Virus record (IMG/VR): IMGVR_UViG_2684622579_000002 | DNA from: a virus | Lineage: Duplodnaviria; Heunggongvirae; Uroviricota; Caudoviricetes | Direction: 5' to 3' (one strand) | Length of the DNA stretch: 16,029 bases | Part shown: one piece after another, positions 3,755 to 16,029 of the stretch | Position numbering within the stretch: position 1 is the stretch's first letter | How the letters are laid out: the number at the start of each line of letters is the position of its first letter | The notes under the pieces: generated by a model | Seen by the model: only the letters and a program-made list of their open reading frames with translations | What the model was told of the DNA's origin: nothing | The model's database searches: none | Program-made: the position numbers and the translations under genes

Positions 3755-3800
3755 ATTCGTAATGCGAAGGTCGTAGGTTCGACTCCTATTATCGGCACCA
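3755..3800 (+). other. 46-nt 3' fragment of a tRNA-Thr(CGU)-like gene (anticodon loop through CCA) lacking the 5' half: probable att core or direct repeat at an island junction
   Basis: attcgtaatgcgaaggtcgtaggttcgactcctattatcggcacca contains an anticodon loop with CGT, a T-arm GGTTCGACTCC and an acceptor 3' strand TATCGGC-A-CCA. No complementary GCCGATA acceptor 5' strand is present upstream, so this is not an intact tRNA. Confidence 0.7.
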
Positions 3801-3964
3801 TCACCTAGTTTTCCCAAGTCAACCCACATCAACAAAATCATTTAAAAACATATATATTACGTTATTTTCATACGTTTGAGGTCAACCCTTGTCTCTTGAA
3901 ATCAACACGCGGTTGGGGGCACAATCAGGGGCATGTTCTGTTCGGTCTAGGAAATGTGCCCCCA

Positions 3965-5155: not shown

Positions 5156-5976
5156 ATATTTTAAAAATTAATAATACTGATTCTCTGCTCAGAGATTACT
5201 ACCAGTTGGATGAAGCTTCAGAAAAAATTGGTTGTAGTGAAAAGGATATACTCTGGTTTGCCAGAGAACGAGATGTAGAGCTATGCATGGAATTCCATGA
5301 TGATGAGTATGATGTTTCATGTGGTTTGAAGATTGATGGTCAAATGGATGAGTTCTTATCTAATCTGAAATATTTACCACGAGATAGAAATGGCAATATT
5401 ATGTTGTCAGACTTAAGTTCTATAAGAATCCCTGATGAAGATAATTTAATTGATAAAAATGGTTTTATTCGATGTTTCATATCCGGTTTATGGGCTGTTG
5501 ATTATGAATATAAAGATCTGTTAGTTAAGCATGAGGGGCAACCGGATTCTTGGCCTATTCATTTTCTACTGGCGGGTACGCCTAATATAAATTGTAAGGT
5601 AATTCTTTATGTAAATTATGATGAAAAAGAAAATTATTATCTTTTTGAGGTTTTGTGGATTACAAAGGTACAGATTCAAAAATTCATTGATATAGTCTTA
5701 TGCGAACAAAAGCGGATAAAAAACGCCAATAAATATAAATCACAATCTGAGGCGCAAAAACAAAAACATGCTGTTCCTCGAGCTGAAATACTCATGGCTA
5801 TTATTTCGCTCTATCATCGTGATATGAGGCTAAGAAGAGAGAGTCCAGCAGCGATAGCTGATTATCTTTTTCAACATGCCAGTGAGTTCTGGCCTAAGAC
5901 CGGAGAACCGCCTTTGAGCTATGATACTGTTGTTAGTTTGCTACGTAGTTGCATGAAAAACATTAAGTTTAACTAA
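5152..5976 (+). CDS. Hypothetical protein (274 aa), AT-rich, translationally coupled to the integrase
   Basis: ATGA overlap with the integrase stop (ATG 5152, TGA 5153-5155); AT-rich codon usage unlike the GC-rich replication module; no motif I can assign. Confidence 0.6.
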   Translation: MNILKINNTDSLLRDYYQLDEASEKIGCSEKDILWFARERDVELCMEFHDDEYDVSCGLKIDGQMDEFLSNLKYLPRDRNGNIMLSDLSSIRIPDEDNLIDKNGFIRCFISGLWAVDYEYKDLLVKHEGQPDSWPIHFLLAGTPNINCKVILYVNYDEKENYYLFEVLWITKVQIQKFIDIVLCEQKRIKNANKYKSQSEAQKQKHAVPRAEILMAIISLYHRDMRLRRESPAAIADYLFQHASEFWPKTGEPPLSYDTVVSLLRSCMKNIKFN

Positions 5977-6101
5977 ATATTAACAATTATTGTGGCTAAT
6001 GATTTTGGATTTTTTTCATTAGTCACATTTTTCTCATTTATAACCTATGTTTTAATTTTCCGTGTTGAAGCCAATAGACTTAGATAAACGGAGAATGATG
6101 A

Positions 6102-6392
6102 ATGTTATCTAAACATGATAATACTACTTTGCAACGACCTTCAATGGATTCTCTGATCGATATGAAGTTTATTACTTCCGATTGTTTATTAAGTGATAAA
6201 TGGATTTATCGATTGATTTCTCTGAATCGCTTTCCAAAACCTATAAAAATAGGTCGGATGTCACGATGGCGCGCTGCTGATTATTATAAGTGGCGAGATG
6301 GGTTTGAAGAAAACTCAGGTCAACATTTTGAGGGAATGAGAAATAAGGCAAGAGCAATTAATAAAGGGAATAGATTATCACCTACTCCCTAA
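6102..6392 (+). CDS. alpA: AlpA-family phage transcriptional regulator (small DNA-binding protein)
   Basis: IYRLISLNRFPKPIKIGRMSRWRAADYYKW resembles the AlpA/phage regulatory protein HTH signature; GGAG SD 8 nt upstream of ATG 6102. Shorter starts at 6144 or 6162 are possible. Confidence 0.7.
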   Translation: MLSKHDNTTLQRPSMDSLIDMKFITSDCLLSDKWIYRLISLNRFPKPIKIGRMSRWRAADYYKWRDGFEENSGQHFEGMRNKARAINKGNRLSPTP

Positions 6393-6424
6393 GCCTTAAT
6401 TGATAGTTAGTAATATTTAACTGA

Positions 6425-6598
6425 TTAGCCTTTAGGGTCAATCCCGCGTGATTGGAGTTCTTTGCGTAAAATTCTTTTAATCCAAGTTGCCAACGCGCTA
6501 TCTCCATCTTTGCGCATTTCGTTTTCGAGTTGCAACCTAAAATCGTCGGTAAGACGCATTTGGAATGGTGGAGAACGTTTCTCTTGTGGTGTTGACAT
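6425..6598 (-). CDS. Arc/MetJ-type ribbon-helix-helix DNA-binding protein (57 aa), absent from the supplied ORF track
   Basis: Hand-translated minus-strand ORF MSTPQEKRSPPFQMRLTDDFRLQLENEMRKDGDSALATWIKRILRKELQSRGIDPKG; the PPFQMRL segment resembles the Arc N-terminal beta-strand motif (PQFNLR). Start codon overlaps a palindromic operator. Confidence 0.6.
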   Translation of the reverse strand: MSTPQEKRSPPFQMRLTDDFRLQLENEMRKDGDSALATWIKRILRKELQSRGIDPKG

Positions 6599-6638
6599 GG
6601 TAATTACCCTAGAATATGATGACTACATGGTAATTACC
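6595..6638. promoter_or_regulatory. Two copies of the 14-bp repeat ACATGGTAATTACC, each containing the perfect palindrome GGTAATTACC, 30 bp apart: putative operators
   Basis: Palindromes at 6599-6608 and 6629-6638; the first overlaps the start codon of the Arc-like gene, the second lies in its promoter region, within the divergent intergenic region 6599-6729. Confidence 0.55.
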
Positions 6639-6666
6639 ATTGTAAGTATAGTTCGCTTGTAAAAGC

Positions 6667-6701
6667 AATGCCCGATTGTGCGGGAACACAAATCGGGCAT
6701 T
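6667..6701. promoter_or_regulatory. 14-bp-stem inverted repeat (AATGCCCGATTGTG / CACAAATCGGGCATT, loop cgggaa) in the leader of the replication operon
   Basis: Arms 6667-6680 and 6687-6701 are complementary with one bulge; located 29 nt upstream of ATG 6730; no U-tract follows. Confidence 0.45.
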
Positions 6702-6729
6702 TAACCAACCGTTATAAGAGGTAACGAAG

Positions 6730-6906
6730 ATGGCTAAACAGAAGTGTACCTGGTTATTTGCGGCGATCAACCGCAGTCAACGCAATGCCCGTCCTGTGAT
6801 GTTAAGGATCACCGCAGATAACGAGCGGTCAGCGCGGCGCAGACTTGCCCCGGACTATGTACTGAGCTTTGCCGGGCGCATTCCCTGCGGAGGTGAACAT
6901 GCGTAA
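6730..6906 (+). CDS. Small protein (58 aa), first gene of the replication operon; possibly Icd-like
   Basis: Hand-translated MAKQKCTWLFAAINRSQRNARPVMLRITADNERSARRRLAPDYVLSFAGRIPCGGEHA; AAGAGG SD 8 nt upstream; stop overlaps the next gene start (ATGCGTAA). Family assignment is from memory and weak. Confidence 0.5.
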   Translation: MAKQKCTWLFAAINRSQRNARPVMLRITADNERSARRRLAPDYVLSFAGRIPCGGEHA

Positions 6907-7258
6907 TTATCCGCACCCCGGCGAACGCTGGCAGCATGAACGTGGCTGGACGGTCACGATTATCCGATTAATAGAAGCCTCGCCCTCTGTGGCGCTGGTT
7001 AATCCTGAATTCAGCTGTGAAGTGCTGATACGTCATGACAGCGACAACCAGCTTTCTTCCTGCCCTCTGGCATGGTTTGAACAGCGGTATACGCGCCTGT
7101 TTGATGTACCGCTCTTTAAGCCTGCACCAGCTCCTGCAGGCGGTAGTGGTTCCGGCCCGCTGACACTGCATCCGTCTGTGCTATTTATCCGCTGGCGGGA
7201 GCGTAGCATATGGCGTTCTGCTGAGCCTGACGACGGTCACTATTCAAAGTTTCTCTGA
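6899..7258 (+). CDS. Hypothetical protein (120 aa)
   Basis: ATG at 6899 preceded by GGAGGT; GC-rich codon usage consistent with neighbours; the ORF track extended it to an upstream alternative start at 6869. Confidence 0.5.
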   Translation: MRNYPHPGERWQHERGWTVTIIRLIEASPSVALVNPEFSCEVLIRHDSDNQLSSCPLAWFEQRYTRLFDVPLFKPAPAPAGGSGSGPLTLHPSVLFIRWRERSIWRSAEPDDGHYSKFL

Positions 7259-7289
7259 CAAAATACCGCTGAAAACGGAGTAATCCACG

Positions 7290-7574
7290 ATGAATATTTC
7301 AAACGGGCACAACGGTGCTCAGGGCCACACTTTGCCTGAAAAACACAATACCGGTGCTTTTGCCTATGGGTTGTCAGAGGACAGTTTCGGAAAGCTGACC
7401 CGCGCAAGAAATGCCTGCGACATGCTCCAGCTTCTCTTTTCTGAATACCCGTCTCAGGCCGGAGCACTGGACGCTGGCTGTGCGCATGGTGTCGCCGCGC
7501 TGATGGAGTACCTGCTGGCAGATTTGACGGATATTGCACACAGTTGCGCACTGATTGAAGGAGGTGCCAGATGA
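7290..7574 (+). CDS. Hypothetical protein (94 aa)
   Basis: ATG 7290 with GGAG 8 nt upstream; stop overlaps the next start. Confidence 0.5.
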   Translation: MNISNGHNGAQGHTLPEKHNTGAFAYGLSEDSFGKLTRARNACDMLQLLFSEYPSQAGALDAGCAHGVAALMEYLLADLTDIAHSCALIEGGAR

Positions 7575-7954
7575 ACCAGCCGCAGGTTTCCATTTTCCCG
7601 GCAGAAATGACCACCGCGCTTTACCGGCGGGCTATTGCTTCAGCATGGCGGCAGAAAATGCTGAACGAAACTGGCAGTGATCAGTATGGTCCGCACAGCC
7701 TGACGGTGGAGCGTATTGAAATGGCCATTGCGCTGCATATCGAGTGCGTACTGATTAACGAGTACGGCGAAGTGCAGGGCGCCGCTACCGCGCTGGCACT
7801 GCTGACTGACATGCTGGAGCCGTCACTGCTGACCGCGCCGCCGGTACTGACCGCGCGCGGCTGTGAAGTGATGGCGGAGATGTACCGCACGCTTCCGGCG
7901 GCCTTTGATGACTTCTGCAGTACCGGTGTGACGTTGTATGAGGGGGAAGTATGA
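7571..7954 (+). CDS. Hypothetical protein (127 aa)
   Basis: ATG 7571 with GGAGGT SD; ATGA overlaps at both ends indicate translational coupling into the primase gene. Confidence 0.55.
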   Translation: MNQPQVSIFPAEMTTALYRRAIASAWRQKMLNETGSDQYGPHSLTVERIEMAIALHIECVLINEYGEVQGAATALALLTDMLEPSLLTAPPVLTARGCEVMAEMYRTLPAAFDDFCSTGVTLYEGEV

Positions 7955-10623
7955 CAATACGGACGGTTACGCAGATTTCAGCCGCCGCACGGGGGAAATG
8001 GCCCGTTATTCTGCAGATGCTGCGTATTGATGTACCTGAAAACGGCAGGCACGGTCCCTGCCCGAAATGTGGGGGCAAGGATCGTTTTCGCCTTGATGAC
8101 CTTGACGGGCGCGGGACGTGGATCTGCAGCCAGTGTGGCAATGGTGACGGTCTGGATCTGGTTAAGCTCGTAACCGGTTACAGCGTCAGAAAGGCTGCGC
8201 AGGAGGTGGCGCAGGTGCTTAATGTGCCGGATGTGCAGGAACTGCCTGTTAAGCCTGCCAGACAAAAAGCCCCTAAACGAGACATGGGTCTTACCGTGGC
8301 GGCGCTGATGAAAGAGAGCCACACGGGAGAAAGCGCCTATCTGACAGGAAAAGGGTTCGCCGGATACCCGGCCTCTCTGACCGGAAGCGTGCAGCATATC
8401 AGCGGTAAGGATTTTCCTGCCGGTTCCCTGCTGTTACCACTCACGACCAACACCGGAGCCGTGACCGGTGCACAGCTTATCGCCCCGACGGGTGAAAAAA
8501 GCATACTGCCCGGCAGCACGATGAAAGGCGCGTTTGTGTCGCTCAGCCCGTTACCGTCTGAACCACCGGTACAGGTGGTGATTACCGAAGGTTACGCTAC
8601 GGCGCTGACGGTAAGCCAGCTCACTGCCGGATGCGTAGTGGCTGCCATATCTGCGGGCAACCTGCCCAATGTGGCGCAGTCGCTGCGGGCACGCTGGCCT
8701 GAGGTAAAAATTATCATCGCCGGTGATAACGATTTTCAGGACGGGGGTGAGAATCCCGGCAGAGCCTTTGCTGAACGGGCGGCAAAAGCTGTTGGCGGCT
8801 GGATGACGCTGCCACCAGGAGAGATTAAGGCTGACTGGAATGACTTTCATCGGGAGCACGGTATTACCCGTGCCCGTGAAGCCTTTCGCAACGGTCTGGT
8901 ACTGTGCGGGGAAGGCCGCACGCAACTGCCGCACGGGTTCCGTCTTACCCAGGAATATCTCTGGTATGAAAAGCAGGTACAGCGCAACGGTGAGACGGAG
9001 ATCCAGAACGTCAAAATATGCAGCCCGCTGCGCGTGACGGCAATTACCTGCGATGCCGATGGCGGTAACTTCGGACGACTGCTGGAATGGGAAGATACGT
9101 GGGGTGAGTGTCGCCGCTGGGCGATGCCAATGGAAATGCTGAGCGGCAGTGGTGAGGAACTGCGCCGGGTACTGCTGGTTAACGGGCTGTCTTATATCAG
9201 CACCACCGGTGAGGCACGCGCACGCCTGATGGAATATATCTCACTGTGTAAACCGGAACGCCGCGTGACCTGCGTCAGTCGTACTGGCTGGCATGGTCAG
9301 GTTTACGTCCTGCAGGATGAGGTCAGCGGTGAAGGTGCAGAGGGTGTCATTCTCCAGACCACTTCCGTGCAGGGGCGTGATTTCCGCGTGTCGGGCACAA
9401 CAGAGGAATGGCGGGAGCATGTATCCCGCTACTGTACCGGCAACTCCCGCGTGGCATTTGCTGTCAGCCTGGCCTTTGCTGCACCACTGTTACGGCTGGT
9501 TGGTATGGACGGCGGCGGCTACCACCTCAAAGGGGAATCGACAGACGGTAAGACCACCACCATGAAAGCGGCAACCTCCGTCTGCGGCGGGCCTGACTAC
9601 TGGCAGACATGGCGGGCCACCGGCAACGCGCTGGAGGGATGCGCCAGCCGCCGTAACGATGCCGCCATGATGCTTGATGAGATCCGGGAAGTTGACGGAC
9701 GCGAGGCAGGCAATATCGCCTACATGCTGGCAAACGGTCAGGGCAAGGGCCGTGCCGGTACGGACGGTGAGCTGCGTACCCGTAAGCAGTGGCGCCTGTT
9801 GTTCTTTTCAACTGGCGAGTTGTCTCTGACCGAACATGCGGCAAAGGCCGGTGAGCGTACTTTTGCCGGGATGGAAGTCAGGATGATCCAGATCCCCAGC
9901 GATTCCGGGAAGTTTGGCGTTTTTGAGGAGCTGCACGGCTTCGACAGCGGCAAGGCTCTGGCAGAGCATCTTGAATGGGCCACGTCCTGCTACTACGGTT
10001 CGCCGTTCCGGGAGTGGCTGAAAGCACTGACCGCTGATCTTAACGGACTAACGGCACAGGCAAAATCGCTGATGAAGGAATATGCTGCCGCCCTGACTCC
10101 GAAAGATGCAGGCAATCAGGTGGGCCGGGCTGTGAACCGCTTTGCACTGGTGGCGATGGCAGGTGAACTGGCAACCCGTCTGGGTATCACCGGCTGGCCT
10201 GAGGGTGAAGCACTGCGGGCAACCCGCGTCTGCCTGAACGCATGGCTGAAAGATCGCGGGCACACCGCCAATCAGGAAGATATCGCCGCACTGGAGCAGG
10301 TTCGCAGTTTCTTTACCGCGAATCAGTACAGCCGCTTTGCAGACTGGTATGACGAGCGCAACCGCCCCGGCAATATGGTGGGCTGGCGCAGGGTGGAGAA
10401 AGGCAGTACCGCGCAGGGCACGGAAGCTGTCACTACGTTCTATGTCATGCCGTCCGGCTGGAAAGAAATCTGCAGGGGATTTGACCCGCGCAAGGTGGCG
10501 CGTCTGTGCGCAGATCGTGGATACCTGCTGCCCTCCACTGATGGCAAACTCCAGACAACCATTCGCCCGCCAGAGATGAATCCCCGCAGGCTCTATGTCT
10601 TCAACAGCGAGGTGCCGGGTTAA
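7951..10623 (+). CDS. P4-alpha-like primase-helicase (890 aa): zinc ribbon, TOPRIM and C-terminal P-loop NTPase domains
   Basis: N-terminal CPKCGG...CSQCG zinc-binding motif; TOPRIM-like VVITEGYATALTV and IIIAGDNDFQD; Walker A-like GESTDGKTT. GAGGGGGA SD upstream of ATG 7951. Confidence 0.9.
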   Translation: MTIRTVTQISAAARGKWPVILQMLRIDVPENGRHGPCPKCGGKDRFRLDDLDGRGTWICSQCGNGDGLDLVKLVTGYSVRKAAQEVAQVLNVPDVQELPVKPARQKAPKRDMGLTVAALMKESHTGESAYLTGKGFAGYPASLTGSVQHISGKDFPAGSLLLPLTTNTGAVTGAQLIAPTGEKSILPGSTMKGAFVSLSPLPSEPPVQVVITEGYATALTVSQLTAGCVVAAISAGNLPNVAQSLRARWPEVKIIIAGDNDFQDGGENPGRAFAERAAKAVGGWMTLPPGEIKADWNDFHREHGITRAREAFRNGLVLCGEGRTQLPHGFRLTQEYLWYEKQVQRNGETEIQNVKICSPLRVTAITCDADGGNFGRLLEWEDTWGECRRWAMPMEMLSGSGEELRRVLLVNGLSYISTTGEARARLMEYISLCKPERRVTCVSRTGWHGQVYVLQDEVSGEGAEGVILQTTSVQGRDFRVSGTTEEWREHVSRYCTGNSRVAFAVSLAFAAPLLRLVGMDGGGYHLKGESTDGKTTTMKAATSVCGGPDYWQTWRATGNALEGCASRRNDAAMMLDEIREVDGREAGNIAYMLANGQGKGRAGTDGELRTRKQWRLLFFSTGELSLTEHAAKAGERTFAGMEVRMIQIPSDSGKFGVFEELHGFDSGKALAEHLEWATSCYYGSPFREWLKALTADLNGLTAQAKSLMKEYAAALTPKDAGNQVGRAVNRFALVAMAGELATRLGITGWPEGEALRATRVCLNAWLKDRGHTANQEDIAALEQVRSFFTANQYSRFADWYDERNRPGNMVGWRRVEKGSTAQGTEAVTTFYVMPSGWKEICRGFDPRKVARLCADRGYLLPSTDGKLQTTIRPPEMNPRRLYVFNSEVPG

Positions 10624-10649: not shown

Positions 10650-10845
10650 GGGTAACAGGTGAAACAGGTGGAACAACCGTATTTTACAGGGCTGAATCTG
10701 TTCCACCTTCTGAAATAGTGAGGTGGAACAGATGTAACGCCAGCCAATCCGCTGTTCCACCTTGTTACCCGCGATGTTCCACCGGTGCAGTGTATATAAA
10801 TGCTTTATAAAACAAATGGGTAACACATGTTTCACCTGTTACACC
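10650..10845. repeat. Iteron cluster: five copies of the 9-mer GGTGGAACA/TGTTCCACC in alternating orientation, bounded by a 15/16-bp inverted repeat, with an adjacent AT-rich tract
   Basis: GGTGGAACA at 10667-10675 and 10722-10730; TGTTCCACC at 10699-10707, 10753-10761 and 10775-10783; the forward-reverse pair recurs with 55-bp periodicity. Outer inverted repeat GGTAACAGGTGAAACA (10651-10666) versus TGTTTCACCTGTTACA (10828-10843). AT-rich tract gtgtatataaatgctttataaaacaaatg at about 10790-10817. Confidence 0.65.
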
Positions 10846-10933
10846 GCATCAGGGACATAAAGCAGACTGAAACAGAGGGCATTTTTATCTGGCTGGCTTT
10901 CATAGCCACGTCTGAATAACCGCAAGCGCCCGT

Positions 10934-10951
10934 TGTACCAGCCACCACACA
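10934..10951 (+). promoter_or_regulatory. TGT-N12-ACA dyad (TGTACCAGCCACCACACA), candidate Ogr/Delta-dependent late promoter element for the sid/psu/ogr operon
   Basis: The motif centre lies about 80 bp upstream of ATG 11024, compatible with the roughly -55 placement of this element in P2/P4 late promoters. Confidence 0.4.
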
Positions 10952-11023
10952 CTGAGCACCGATAGTGTGCTTGTGTCAGCCACGACACAATTGACGTAAC
11001 GAACCAACCCGACAGGAGAAGTC

Positions 11024-11767
11024 ATGAACAACACCGCAGTGAATAACAACCTTTCCACTTTTCCGGCTGTAACGCAGCGGGCACTGGAAACCATGAACAC
11101 AGCCAGAAACGCATGGCTTGAAGCACGTCGTCAGCAGAAAGCGGCAGCGGATAATATTGCGACAATCCGCCAGCGTCGCGCTGAAATGGAAGCCACGACG
11201 AACACACTGAATGAGGAGTGGCGCACGCTGTTTCGTGAAAGTCAGGGCGTGGTCTCAAAGGAAATGAAAAAACTGCGCACGGAAATTGCGCTGGGACGAG
11301 AAACTCTTGAGGATTTTGATGAGCTGCTGGAGGCTCAGGAAAGCGAAAATGCACTTTTGCCGCAGAAAGCTGCGGAATTAGCCGGAAAGTATATCCACGC
11401 GCATAACATCCTTGTGGATATTCGCGCAAAACAAATCTGGGAAGATTTTATGCAGTCGCATGGAAAAGCGCTTATTCAGACGCTGAGCCTGCTTAAATCC
11501 ACAATGGGCCGGGAAGCCAGTGCCGTTGTGGGTGTGGTGAATTCAGTTAATGACCCGGACACAGTGCTGAAAGACTTTATTCATAAACATATCACCAGAC
11601 CGGCTCTGGCTAACGATGCGATGCCTGAGCAGGACCCGGTGTTTAAACTGGCGGGAGTTGCCCCGGATTATGCGGCGCGTCTGGATTTCAGTAATCAACT
11701 CTCTCCGGCAGCTATGCATAAAATTAAGGTTCGTCAGGAACTTGCTGAGAAGGAGAAAGCAGTATGA
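11024..11767 (+). CDS. Sid/Psu-family protein (247 aa); by size and position probably a Sid-like capsid size-determination scaffold
   Basis: GGAG SD 5 nt upstream; shares NAWLEARRQQKAAAD and DFMQSHGKAL motifs with the downstream Psu-like protein; ATGA coupling to the next gene. Confidence 0.6.
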   Translation: MNNTAVNNNLSTFPAVTQRALETMNTARNAWLEARRQQKAAADNIATIRQRRAEMEATTNTLNEEWRTLFRESQGVVSKEMKKLRTEIALGRETLEDFDELLEAQESENALLPQKAAELAGKYIHAHNILVDIRAKQIWEDFMQSHGKALIQTLSLLKSTMGREASAVVGVVNSVNDPDTVLKDFIHKHITRPALANDAMPEQDPVFKLAGVAPDYAARLDFSNQLSPAAMHKIKVRQELAEKEKAV

Positions 11768-12315
11768 CGGCCCGAGGCACGCCTGACCAGGCACTTACCA
11801 GTTTTCGGAATGCCCGTATTCTGTGGGCCGGACATAATGAGAGCCGAAAAGCCGTTGAACAACAGATAACATCTCTCCTCGCTGCCACAGAAAAACCAGC
11901 AGATTATGCCCGACAGCTCGAATTACTGCGGGAACGTCTGGATGTGCTGAAATGGCAAATTAACTGTGCTGCGCGCGAATGCATTTACTCGCAGCATTTA
12001 CTGATGGAGGCCTGCACAGAAGCCGCTCTCAGCAATTTTATGCAGGCGAATGGGGCAGCCCTGACATCTGCACTGGCTCCGTTCCTGAAGGGGCGCGGAG
12101 GGGTTGACGTTGCGTCCCGTATATTACGCAGTGCTCTGGTTCGCCAGCTGGCAATAACACCGCCTGAAATTGCCGGGGATTATCGTGAGATCCTGGATGA
12201 ATCCGGTTTGATGCCTGACCCCGGGATGATTCGTGATTGCCAGGGTTCTTACACCCCGGCACAACATCTGCGTTTTCAGCAACGCCTGAATGACATTAAC
12301 GATATACAGGAGTGA
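11764..12315 (+). CDS. psu: Psu-like polarity suppression / capsid decoration protein (183 aa)
   Basis: LKWQINCAARECIYSQH and FMQANGAALTSALAPFLKG match my recollection of P4 Psu (VRKWQVNQAAGRYI and FMQQHGTALAAALAP); similar length to P4 Psu. Confidence 0.65.
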   Translation: MTARGTPDQALTSFRNARILWAGHNESRKAVEQQITSLLAATEKPADYARQLELLRERLDVLKWQINCAARECIYSQHLLMEACTEAALSNFMQANGAALTSALAPFLKGRGGVDVASRILRSALVRQLAITPPEIAGDYREILDESGLMPDPGMIRDCQGSYTPAQHLRFQQRLNDINDIQE

Positions 12316-12320
12316 TATTA

Positions 12321-12593
12321 ATGGCACTTAAATGTCCGGAATGCGGTACAGTTGCACACGCCAGAACAGCAGCCTATGAAGCTCCGTCAGTTAAACGCTC
12401 GTGGTATCAGTGCCAGAATCTGGAATGTTCCTGCACATTTACGGCACTGGAGAGTGTGGATAAGATAATCATGAAACCCCGGCGCAATGAACAGCTATCA
12501 GACAAAGCACAATCCCCGGAAAAACAACAGCAAACGCTCAATCGCTATGGCTCCGCGTCAAAACTGTCAAGCCGTCAGCAGATTCCTGTCTGA
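12321..12593 (+). CDS. ogr: Ogr/Delta-family zinc-finger late transcription activator (90 aa)
   Basis: CPECG...HART...YQCQNLECSCTF matches the Cys4 pattern of P2 Ogr (CPLCQ...HART...HQCQNVNCSATF); AGGAG SD 8 nt upstream of ATG 12321. The ORF track started it at the GTG at 12312. Confidence 0.8.
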   Translation: MALKCPECGTVAHARTAAYEAPSVKRSWYQCQNLECSCTFTALESVDKIIMKPRRNEQLSDKAQSPEKQQQTLNRYGSASKLSSRQQIPV

Positions 12594-12613
12594 TTAGAAA
12601 AAAACGCCCACGT

Positions 12614-12640
12614 AATCCCGGTCGAGTACCGGGATTTTTA
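12614..12640 (+). terminator. Rho-independent terminator after the ogr-like gene
   Basis: aatcccggt / accgggatt 9-bp stem with a 5-nt loop, followed by a T-run (gggattttt) 20 nt after the stop codon. Confidence 0.65.
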
Positions 12641-13050
12641 ACACCTTTTCCCTGGCTGGCCTGAGAGCGCATGAGTGCATGTCTATGGCGCATGAAAATG
12701 CATGAGCCTTATGCACCTTTTTTGAGGCGAAAACCTTTGTGTGGTGGTATCTGAGACGATTTATGGCATGCATGAAAACCAGTCTGTTAAGCGAAGCGGG
12801 CAGGCGTGCGGGGCTGCCCGCGATAGCACTGAAATCAACAGGTAAAACTATTTTTTATTAGTAGTGTAAACTGGGAGCGAACGGACTCTGTCATGCTGTA
12901 TCATCCTGTAATGATCAATCTCACTGGTGTCTGTATAGATGTCAACCAGTTTCGACGGCTGTGTCTAACTTAAAATTAGAGCTTAATCAAGTTTTTCCTC
13001 GAGAATACTTTTAAAAGACAATGAGTTATGAGAAAGTGGAGGCTGTCACG

Positions 13051-13079
13051 TTGGTCATATGTAACACTCCACGTAATCT
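13051..13079 (+). promoter_or_regulatory. Putative sigma70-type promoter (TTGGTC - 17 nt - TAATCT) for the three-gene operon
   Basis: -35-like TTGGTC 13051-13056, 17-nt spacer, -10-like TAATCT 13074-13079, about 44 nt upstream of ATG 13123. Identified by eye only. Confidence 0.3.
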
Positions 13080-13122
13080 TAATCGCTTTGTAAATGTTGA
13101 AGTTAATTAATAGGGAAAACTG

Positions 13123-14082
13123 ATGCTAACCAGGGCTGAAAATATAAGAAAAATCACAAGCTATTTAGCTATTCTCTCAAGAGAGGTTGAGATTAGTGCC
13201 TCCCTCAATCTTTTGGATATCAACGTTCAAGCGGAATCTTTTTATAGAGATTTCTTAAACTTATGTTATGGATATAATTTAAGAAATACCAATAGTGAAG
13301 AGCAAAACTACCAAGCAATAGATCTTGCTGATGAAGATCGGAAGATTGCTATACAAGTAACTTCAACTTCTGACTTGGGAAAAATTAAGAATACAGTTGA
13401 TGGATTTATAAAAAGTAAGCAATATGAAAAATATGATAGACTAATTGTACTGAATATAACTGAAAAGAAAAAGCACAGATTGAAAGAGTATGGAATAGCC
13501 GGGTGCTATGTAATTAATATCAAAGATGATGTATGGGATTATAAGGATATAATTAGAAAGATAAACGATTTGAATGATTGTGATATATCAACAATATGCT
13601 CATTTTTGGAACGTAATATTAATACTAAAGCTGCTGATAAACCGCCGAAAGAAGTCACAACTATGTTTGCGATGATTGAATTATTGAGTGATGATGCTCA
13701 CCCATTGGCAGGAAATGGATTTATTGAAGAGCCTAATCCTGAAAATAAAATATATAAAAGATTTTCAGATTATTCAGAGCGGTTGATTGGCTTATATACT
13801 GGGTTAGCTCCATTATATAGTGGGATATTTAAGTCAATAAAAGAACAGAGCGATATTGGTATCGTAAGGTACCAAAAGATGAGTTTGTATTTAGAGTCAT
13901 TTAGTGATAAGGTCTTAAGAAGCCATGGTGGAGATCCTATCTTGGCGCTTAATTATTTAAAAGAATATTTTTCTAAACAACTGAGCCAGAGAAATGTAGA
14001 TTACGATGAAACAGCTATCAAATTTTTCTTAATTGAGAATTTAATTGCATGTAACGTCTTTCCTAATTCGGAGATTCTTTGA
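13123..14082 (+). CDS. Hypothetical protein (319 aa), putative effector of a three-gene system; N-terminal region possibly SMEK-like
   Basis: AGGGA SD 6 nt upstream; AT-rich codon usage. N-terminal LNLLDINVQAESFYRDFLNLCYGYNL...IAIQVTSTSD resembles what I recall of SMEK-domain proteins of ABC-three-component systems; unverified. TGATG overlap with the next gene. Confidence 0.65.
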   Translation: MLTRAENIRKITSYLAILSREVEISASLNLLDINVQAESFYRDFLNLCYGYNLRNTNSEEQNYQAIDLADEDRKIAIQVTSTSDLGKIKNTVDGFIKSKQYEKYDRLIVLNITEKKKHRLKEYGIAGCYVINIKDDVWDYKDIIRKINDLNDCDISTICSFLERNINTKAADKPPKEVTTMFAMIELLSDDAHPLAGNGFIEEPNPENKIYKRFSDYSERLIGLYTGLAPLYSGIFKSIKEQSDIGIVRYQKMSLYLESFSDKVLRSHGGDPILALNYLKEYFSKQLSQRNVDYDETAIKFFLIENLIACNVFPNSEIL

Positions 14083-14330
14083 TGTTAAGTTTTTTTTCGA
14101 AAGATGAGGATTTGACAAAATCCCCTCCTGTTGTAGGGGCTAAAATTCTTAATTTATTTGACGAAACAAAAAAAGAAAAAATTAGTATTTTCGATTTAGC
14201 AAAAGAATTAAAGAAAAACAACTCTCTAGGAGTGCGTGCAATTTATTTTGGAATGGTCTTTCTTTATACTCTTGATCTTATCGATTTCGATGAGCCATAT
14301 GTGATAAATAAAAATGTTAAGAATAAATAA
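14082..14330 (+). CDS. Small protein (82 aa), putative middle/adaptor component
   Basis: ATG 14082 overlaps the upstream TGA (14080-14082); its 3' end overlaps the ATPase start by 17 nt; AT-rich. Confidence 0.55.
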   Translation: MLSFFSKDEDLTKSPPVVGAKILNLFDETKKEKISIFDLAKELKKNNSLGVRAIYFGMVFLYTLDLIDFDEPYVINKNVKNK

Positions 14331-16029
14331 ACTATATAGCATACCAGAATCTTTTGAGCCAGTAAGCTTTGATAGTGGCATCAATATCATCTTAGGTGAA
14401 AAAGATGTTTCATCTAACAAAACTAATGGAGTGGGTAAAACTCTTTTAATAGAGTTTATTAATTTTTGTTTATTAAAAGAATTTAAGTCGAGTAGAGTTT
14501 CTAAAATTCCTCATTCTGATTTTTCGAAAGACATTTTGATATGCCTTGATTTTAATATTGATAATATTAACATTATATCCCAGCGTTCTATTGGGAAACA
14601 TAATGAGCCAACACTTGTAATAAATGGAAAAACAATAGAGTTTAGTGGATTAGATGATGCGTTATCTCATTTAAGCAATCTTATCTTTAAGAATAGTAAG
14701 GGTATACTTCATCCATCATTTAGAGCGATGCTGGGGCCTCTGATACGCGATGAACGATCTGAATTTAAATCTATTGTTGAGTGCTTCGACACAAAATTAC
14801 ATATACCTGCTGACTATACTCCTCATCTTTATTTGTTAGGTATTGATATTGCTCCCTATAAAGAGGCAAAGATTTTACAACGAGAAATAGATGATTTATC
14901 AACTACAAAAAATAAAATAAAGAGAGATATTGAATTTCTGACGGGAAAAAAAATTAGTTCTGCAAAGGCAGAGGTTAATGATCTTAAATCAAAAGTTGAA
15001 CATATCAGAAACGCTATGGATGCATTTGATAGCGATAGCAGTTATGAACTTATCAAAGATGAAGTAGAAGAATTAGAAAGTTCTTTAGAAGAGTTGCGGA
15101 ATAAAAGAACAATACTTAAGTTAGAGCTTTCAAGAATAAATGCTCTCGTTGGTGAAGTATACATAAATGATGATGAAGTAGTTGAAATTTATAATAAATT
15201 TAAAGTTGGATTAGGTGATGCTATCAAAAAAGAACTTAATGATGTTATTTCATTTAAGAAAAAAATAGATCACTTCCAAAACACTTTGTTAAATACGCGA
15301 AAAGAAACATTACTTTCTGAATTGCGTAAGATATCAGATAAGCTATATACAGTAAATAGACTTTATAAAGAAAAAGCTAGTGTTTTTGAGCAGGCGGGGG
15401 GGTTTAAAAGCCTGAAAATTTTAATAATGACTTATCAGAAAAAGTTAGAGGAGTATTCACAGTTATCTTCATTGCTTAAAAAATTTGAAGATTTCGATTC
15501 TAAATGGAAAGTTAAGAAGTCAGAACGCTCTTCTATGATAATTTCGTTAGATCTTTCTATTATGGATAACGAAAAAACGATTGAATCTTTTGAGGAAACC
15601 ATTTTATCAATCCATGAATATGTTTTTGGAAATAGAAAGTGTTCTTTCGAAATTAAGGCGACAGAGAAGAAAGAAACTATCTCAATGGATTTAAGAATTG
15701 ATGATGACGGTAGTCATAGTAATGAGCGAGAAAAGGTTTTCTTTTATGATTTGGCTCTTTTACTTACAGAAGAAACGTTTCGACGTCACCCTGGATTATT
15801 AATTCATGATAATATTTTTGATGTGGATCAAGATACATTAATTAAAAGCTTGAATTATTTGGCAGAGAAATCCAGTTGCTTAAATGATGCACAATATATT
15901 TTGACGTTAAATAGCGACAAAATTAGTGAAATTGATAAAAGAGATTTGAAACTAGATATTAACTTCTATAAGCGAGCTTCGTTAACTAAAATAAATAGAT
16001 TCCTGGGAAGGCATTATCAAGAAATATAA
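14314..16029 (+). CDS. ABC/SMC-type coiled-coil ATPase (571 aa; the ORF ends exactly at the window edge)
   Basis: N-terminal P-loop region NIILGEKDVSSNKTNGVGKTLLIEF; long charged helical middle (EAKILQREIDDLSTTKNKIKRDIEFL...); C-terminal Walker B-like GLLIHDNIFDVD. TAA at 16027-16029. Confidence 0.8.
   Translation: MLRINKLYSIPESFEPVSFDSGINIILGEKDVSSNKTNGVGKTLLIEFINFCLLKEFKSSRVSKIPHSDFSKDILICLDFNIDNINIISQRSIGKHNEPTLVINGKTIEFSGLDDALSHLSNLIFKNSKGILHPSFRAMLGPLIRDERSEFKSIVECFDTKLHIPADYTPHLYLLGIDIAPYKEAKILQREIDDLSTTKNKIKRDIEFLTGKKISSAKAEVNDLKSKVEHIRNAMDAFDSDSSYELIKDEVEELESSLEELRNKRTILKLELSRINALVGEVYINDDEVVEIYNKFKVGLGDAIKKELNDVISFKKKIDHFQNTLLNTRKETLLSELRKISDKLYTVNRLYKEKASVFEQAGGFKSLKILIMTYQKKLEEYSQLSSLLKKFEDFDSKWKVKKSERSSMIISLDLSIMDNEKTIESFEETILSIHEYVFGNRKCSFEIKATEKKETISMDLRIDDDGSHSNEREKVFFYDLALLLTEETFRRHPGLLIHDNIFDVDQDTLIKSLNYLAEKSSCLNDAQYILTLNSDKISEIDKRDLKLDINFYKRASLTKINRFLGRHYQEI

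Follow-up and report, generated by a model that had tools for sequence, protein, structure and literature searches.

The closest described relatives of the locus analysed here are the late promoters of phage P2 and the sid late promoter (Psid) of phage P4. The inverted repeats bound by Ogr lie at about -55, and Ogr requires a contact with the alpha subunit of RNA polymerase (PMC3152322), and a consensus of TGT-N12-ACA has been described together with the activator motif CX2CX22CX4C (PMC3931495). In the P2 RefSeq record (NC_001895), the annotated activator sites are centred about 55-58 nt upstream of the mapped late starts. Each of the P2 late promoters PO, PP, PV and PF has one imperfect site, without a second dyad near -18. 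None of the annotated P2 sites (L158; 3063-3080, 17561-17578 and 10243-10259) fits the exact consensus: the PO/PP and PF sites read TGT-N12-CCA and the PV site has 11 nt between TGT and ACA, while all satellite sites examined are exact. Since the P2 sites are imperfect, a site that matches the consensus exactly need not be bound by the Ogr of any given helper. Ogr, P4 Delta, phiR73 Delta, PSP3 Pag and 186 B cross-activate one another's promoters.

In P4, Psid drives sid, delta and psu, three genes reported to stand under one promoter (PMC13586616, citing Reiter et al. 1998). The P4 record X51522 carries no promoter annotation. Psid (NC_001609, about 9493-9557) contains two exact TGT-N12-ACA dyads, at 9493-9510 and 9531-9548, which are 38 bp apart. 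Another exact dyad (9133-9150) lies upstream of the leftward operon of P4, in the late promoter PLL, which is activated by Delta. P4 Delta reportedly protects the -55 region of every P2 and P4 late promoter. On the two P4 promoters it is said to leave a second footprint near -18, which modulates activation and does not mediate it.

The satellite and its late operon

Gene content identifies the window, i.e. the whole analysed stretch of 16,029 nt (IMG/VR record IMGVR_UViG_2684622579_000002), as an E. coli prophage of the P4-like satellite type. It carries int, alpA-like, epsilon-like, alpha primase, sid, psu and delta as core genes, a cos-like site and, adjacent to that site, a cargo hotspot. 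The primase domains found are PF08273, Toprim and DUF927, and a DUF5375 protein matches ORF106 of P4. The epsilon-like and alpA-like genes are named from position and RefSeq product name only, and the integrase and the layout of the element are taken from strain VG12A2, to which the 2.1 kb surrounding the dyads are 100% identical. In that strain the element adjoins tRNA-Thr, with the order int, regulators, primase, sid, psu, delta, cargo. Overall, the satellite lineage occurs in 333 of 5426 complete E. coli genomes (about 6%), and the promoter is unannotated. Positions 3764-3800 of the window match the 3' end of tRNA-Thr (GAAGGTCGTAGGTTCGACTCC...CACCA); ARAGORN detected no complete tRNA in the window, and VG12A2 has the full tRNA-Thr ahead of int. 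Since the window holds only this 3' end, another element may have inserted in tandem at the same site. Scans of the window for Rfam families and tRNAs returned none.

The genes and signals downstream of the dyads are the following.

11024-11767, + strand: sid-like capsid size-determination gene, 247 aa (PHROG 6165, 8e-93; Pfam Psu, 1.6e-9)
11764-12315, + strand: psu (polarity suppression / capsid decoration), 183 aa (PF07455, 1e-44; PHROG 6366, 4e-70)
12321-12593, + strand: delta/ogr-like activator, 90 aa (PF04606, 1e-15), MALKCPECG...CQNLEC, with one CX2CX22CX4C zinc finger
12614-12639, + strand: intrinsic terminator closing the sid-psu-delta operon, AATCCCGGT-CGAGT-ACCGGGATT and then TTT, with a 9-bp stem in the minimum-energy and centroid folds
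about 12761-12831, + strand: cos-like packaging site between the late operon and the cargo, from a weak local alignment to the P4/P2 cos junctions, with the blocks TGCATGAAAACC and AAGCGGGC.AGGCG shared

The initial annotation had placed the dyad at 10934-10951 upstream of a sid/psu/ogr operon, which the PHROG 6165, PF07455 and PF04606 genes confirm. That this is the helper-exploitation operon (sid, psu, delta) follows from the Pfam and PHROG assignments together with pairwise matches to the P4 proteins. The sid-like protein, whose gene has an AGGAG ribosome-binding site at 11014-11018, shares 24% identity with P4 Sid over 226 aa (E 2e-12), and Psu is 30% identical to P4 Psu. Delta is 47% identical to P2 Ogr (51 aa) and 45% identical to the first finger of P4 Delta, the only two activators with which it was compared. 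A cognate C4 zinc-finger activator is thus available within the element, having both the PF04606 match and the CX2CX22CX4C motif in its translation. For this gene the list of open reading frames gives a GTG at 12312 as the start, versus an ATG at 12321 that is preceded by GGAG. The true start is most likely the ATG, with which the N-termini of homologues (MALKCPECG) and the RefSeq annotation in VG12A2 agree.

The element departs from P4 in several respects. Its gene order is sid-psu-delta rather than sid-delta-psu, an order swap seen in 20% of P4-like elements (PMC8628076). P4 Delta is a 166-aa tandem of two fingers, whereas Delta of the window, with 90 aa and one finger, is like the single-domain Ogr family (P2 Ogr, phiR73 Delta, PSP3 Pag and 186 B) in its CX2CX22CX4C finger and its size. 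The primase operon is divergent from sid in P4 but co-oriented with sid in the window. Searching a phage collection with the sid region, as DNA and as protein, gave no matches, because P4 is too diverged.

A counterpart of PLL was not found in the window either. No exact dyad occurs in 5976-7951, upstream of the alpA-like, epsilon-like and primase genes, and where P4 has PLL the window has a consensus sigma-70 promoter with repeats of its own. This near-consensus promoter (TTGACA, 17 nt, TATGAT; 6591-6639) has a leftward 57-aa ORF (6425-6598) on one side and the rightward icd-like, epsilon-like and primase genes on the other, and it is overlapped by two copies of ACATGGTAATTACC that lie 31 bp apart. 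It is probably an early promoter with the ACATGGTAATTACC copies (6595-6639) as repressor operators, unlike the RNA-based immunity of P4. Between the primase stop (10623) and the sid promoter there is a further group of repeats.

10654-10845, no strand assigned: iteron cluster, replication-origin-like, with about eight copies of GGTGGAAC / GTTCCACC in both orientations (repeat families D1, D4, D5 and D20; inverted pairs I1, I2, I11 and I18)

These iterons are like the type-1 ori repeats of P4 (TGTTCACC) and one base longer. In P4 the repeats stand about 80 bp upstream of the distal dyad, and in the window the iterons are likewise just upstream.

Two dyads in the arrangement of Psid

The 18-mer TGTACCAGCCACCACACA, a TGT-N12-ACA dyad, is located exactly where the initial annotation had reported it, at 10934-10951 on the + strand, and it starts 90 nt upstream of the ATG at 11024. 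One exact match of this kind is by itself not significant. The whole window holds seven exact matches where 3.71 +/- 1.88 are expected, and at least seven were obtained in 16 of 200 shuffles. Matches with one mismatch are not enriched in the window scan (69 observed, 75.6 expected); such a scan, being at chance level, is unable to identify degenerate sites.

A second exact TGT-N12-ACA dyad, TGTGTCAGCCACGACACA, lies at 10972-10989, which is 38 bp downstream of the first from start to start and 52 nt upstream of the same ATG. Counting the T ahead of each, the two dyads agree at 16 of 19 positions. Their combined 56-nt pattern occurs once in the window with an expectation of 0.01, and among 20,000 mononucleotide shuffles of the window 21 produced the pair (about 0.1%). 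The significance of the dyad at 10934-10951 therefore comes from its context, namely the second dyad and the conservation of the pair, and not from the single match. The promoter can be laid out as follows.

10934-10951, + strand: site I, predicted distal activator dyad (TGTACCAGCCACCACACA), centre 10942.5, about -55.5 from the predicted start
10972-10989, + strand: site II, predicted proximal activator dyad (TGTGTCAGCCACGACACA), centre 10980.5, about -17.5, with an extended 6-bp palindrome TGTGTC/GACACA
10986-10995, + strand: near-invariant block CACAATTGAC, in which CACAAT (10986-10991) is taken as the -10 hexamer
10998, + strand: predicted transcription start, an A, 7 nt past the -10 hexamer and 26 nt upstream of the ATG, from the position of the -10 and the -55 rule of P2

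The P4 dyads start 90 and 52 nt upstream of the sid ATG, offsets identical to those in the window even though Sid and Psu share only 24% and 30% identity between the two elements, and the register between the two promoters is ungapped from the distal dyad through the sid ATG. Overall identity is low: 67 of 158 columns are identical, concentrated in the dyads and around the -10. Common to both are the TGT/ACA triplets and CACAATT, and in both promoters the ACA of the proximal dyad falls within CACAAT, the putative -10 element. P4 has the block CACAATTTTC where the window has CACAATTGAC. The P2 late promoters PO, PP, PV and PF share the activator family and have their site at about -55, where the predicted start would also place the distal dyad of the window, and the left half-site TGTGTCAG of the proximal dyad is identical in the P2 PO/PP site as well as in the P4 distal site. 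The initial annotation had proposed a P2/P4 late-promoter architecture. This holds for the distal dyad, which is placed as in the P4 sid promoter, but the dyad at 10972-10989 had been overlooked, and with it the arrangement is that of P4 Psid rather than of a generic P2 late promoter.

If CACAAT is the -10 hexamer, transcription would start near 10998 and the dyad centres would fall at -55.5 and -17.5, which we take to be the sites of P4 Psid. The second centre would lie near -18, with its dyad overlapping the putative -10, and the spacing is 38 bp in P4 also. A consensus scan of 10880-11023 detected no sigma-70 promoter, and TAGTGT, the hexamer at the -35 position 17 bp ahead of the -10, agrees with TTGACA at two of six positions. 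With neither a functional -35 nor a consensus sigma-70 promoter, the region has the features of activator dependence at the sequence level.

A CRP-type site (TGTGA-N6-TCACA) has TGT and ACA 10 nt apart; the separation is 12 nt in both dyads and in all relatives, which rules out a CRP site. The exact dyad at 3890-3907, about 58 nt upstream of the annotated int start (3965), is probably due to chance, and a nearby CACAAT (3920-3925) would place it near -33 if it were a late promoter. The exact dyad at 12333-12350 lies within Cys/Thr codons of the delta zinc finger and looks like chance as well. A match with one mismatch at 13049-13066, ahead of the cargo ATG, was taken as chance given the lack of enrichment in its class.

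We also noted a motif, TTTTCCCTGGCTGGC, which is found both ahead of the promoter (10883-10897) and just past the delta terminator (12646-12660). A copy of it stands just upstream of the distal dyad in a number of relatives (L008, L010, L012, L015-L017, L127-L131 and L136-L151). Many relatives have the upstream copy within a strong hairpin, CCTTTTCCTGGCTGGCCAGAAGAAGG (-20 kcal/mol, z = -3.1), which is followed by a T run that runs into the distal dyad. The hairpin looks like a terminator insulating the promoter, and its counterpart is degenerate in the window and in P4. In the window itself, the stretch from the co-oriented primase gene to the promoter showed no terminator, so transcription may in part read through into sid.

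Conservation of the paired dyads

We gathered sid loci from one-genome-per-species contigs and from IMG/VR, with P4 Sid and an alignment of diverse Sid proteins as queries. Two exact dyads were present in 155 of the 157 sid-homologue loci and in all 155 full-length ones, both exceptions being truncated sid matches. The loci come from several genera, and their Sid proteins range in identity from 100% down to 38%. Throughout, the spacing of the dyads is 38 bp (39 in a few), and the proximal dyad starts 48-54 nt upstream of the sid ATG, at exactly 52 nt in 123 loci. The layout depends neither on gene order (sid-delta-psu or sid-psu-delta) nor on the number of fingers in Delta, which is usually one (about 90 aa) and two in P4.

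The loci comprise 64 distinct promoter segments. Conservation was measured on 55 unique promoters and on 13 representatives that differ from one another by more than 12%. All twelve TGT/ACA positions are invariant in the 13 representatives, and the interiors of the dyads vary. Outside the triplets, the CACAATTGAC block is the most highly conserved part in both the 55 and the 13. The proximal palindrome reads TGTGCC/GGCACA in most relatives versus TGTGTC/GACACA in the window; both half-sites have changed and the symmetry has been kept. The lineage differences in the dyad interiors could reflect activator specificity.

The pair is also specific. Apart from the sid promoter, only six pairs occur in 638 kb of satellite loci, all of them one homologous second promoter, and 989 kb of P2-like phage loci plus P2 contain none. 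We tentatively suggest, at somewhat less than even confidence, that the paired layout (dyads at about -55 and about -18, with the proximal ACA in the -10) is a universal signature of the late promoter of P4-like satellites, without counterpart in the helpers and kept regardless of gene order and of the number of Delta fingers. Were it universal, the signature would point to a conserved two-site logic, for example activation at low and self-limitation at high activator level, and would provide a simple sequence marker of satellite genes under helper control. The biology of the P4 sid promoter has been studied since the 1980s-90s, and the present finding is not unexpected. What is new, and only mildly so, is how widely the -18 site is conserved and that the examined helper phage sequences lack it.

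Proposed activation of the operon and control of the cargo

Taken together, 10934-11023 is very probably the orthologue of the P4 sid late promoter in a P4-like satellite of E. coli, which gives exact coordinates to the point at which the helper-exploitation operon of this satellite lineage would be controlled. The dyads, their geometry and conservation, the gene content, the terminator and the missing sigma-70 consensus were computed here, and the binding protein, the start site, the activation and the role of site II are predicted from homology. The promoter is most likely activated by the helper Ogr and by the element's own Delta. With its weak -10 (CACAAT) and no usable -35, it would be silent unaided. 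A small C4 zinc-finger activator of the Ogr/Delta family would bind the distal dyad near -55 and recruit RNA polymerase through the alpha subunit. The first supply of activator would be the Ogr of an infecting or induced P2-like helper, and the later supply the satellite's Delta, whose gene lies in the same operon, resulting in positive feedback. Delta may also act on the late operons of the helper. The predicted transcript would carry sid (the small-capsid scaffold), psu (anti-termination and capsid decoration) and delta, and would stop at 12614-12639, before cos. At site II, near -18 and partly within the -10, binding of the activator would tune the output, most likely by limiting it at high activator concentration.

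Among the alternatives, the best surviving one, which we nevertheless regard as unlikely, is that the promoter answers only to the satellite Delta and not to the helper Ogr, in which case it would be a purely autoregulatory switch set off by a different signal from the helper. The interiors of the dyads vary by lineage with both half-sites changing together (TGTGTC/GACACA versus TGTGCC/GGCACA), the P2 sites deviate from the exact consensus, and Delta of the window is just 47% identical to P2 Ogr, as such a private switch might lead one to expect. The proximal left half TGTGTCAG, however, is identical in the P2 PO/PP and P4 distal sites, and a promoter that required its own product would still need a first input. 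The cross-activation among Ogr, P4 Delta, phiR73 Delta, PSP3 Pag and 186 B argues against it as well.

Less probable still, and in our view hardly to be expected, is that the dyads serve the element's repressor or another DNA-binding protein as operators, or that they fold as RNA hairpins when transcription reads through from the primase operon. In favour, the proximal dyad covers part of the -10, where repressors typically bind, and it has a 6-bp palindrome that might fold into a hairpin and that the two-sided change in relatives preserves. Moreover, the primase gene is co-oriented and no terminator was detected between it and the promoter. Against these points, the symmetry of the distal dyad is limited to TGT/ACA, which fits a protein site with fixed contacts and not a 3-bp stem, and the motif, spacing and position all equal those of the P4 sid promoter. 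The likely repressor operators are a different repeat (ACATGGTAATTACC, 6595-6639), and the region gave no Rfam match. That the dyad is a functionless chance match is scarcely credible: single exact matches are common (7 observed, 3.7 expected) and others in the window (12333, 3890) look accidental, but the pair arises in about 0.1% of shuffles and is invariant in 155 loci of several genera while its flanks diverge, and this conservation of the pair excludes a chance origin.

The cargo operon beyond cos (13123-16029) encodes a SMEK_N-domain protein, a small protein with a sub-threshold match to MC6 (the ABC-3C middle component) and a DUF2326/AAA protein, which matches the candidate system PDC-M68B (PADLOC). 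As the initial annotation had stated, no second copy of the dyad precedes this operon: 12594-13122, between delta and the 13123 operon, contains no exact match. Beyond the dyad, no consensus promoter and no terminator were found in front of the cargo, the terminator at 12614-12639 being the end of the delta operon. Since that terminator and the cos-like site stand between the two operons, the separate control of the cargo that had been suggested is plausible, although the absence of a dyad is compatible with some read-through from Psid into the cargo. A cargo hotspot of this kind has been described, in which defence systems work from native promoters without a helper (PMC9122126). With anti-phage cargo past cos and no late control element, the cargo of the window is probably expressed independently of helper infection.

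Separate control is also reasonable from the comparison with relatives in which cargo is under late control, which show the full pair where the cargo of the window does not. Taken as a marker, the pair flags a second promoter before tail-chaperone and tape-measure cargo (L159-L163) and not before the defence cargo of the window. Some close relatives whose Sid is 86-90% identical (L108, L115-L118, L126 and L159-L163) have lost psu and carry this second exact pair past cos. It consists of TGTATGGCGCATCTAACA, 20 nt and TGTGTGAGTCCGGGCACA (2821-2876 in L115) and precedes two genes (2911-3222 in L115; 7911-11072 in L160), one for a tail-assembly chaperone of gpE type (PF10109) and one for a tape-measure-like protein of 878 aa (PF10145), with int after them. 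The arrangement suggests that these satellites carry tail genes read from a late promoter. In the second pair the proximal dyad is followed by CTG rather than ATT, and a GACATTGAC block lies about 10 nt beyond.
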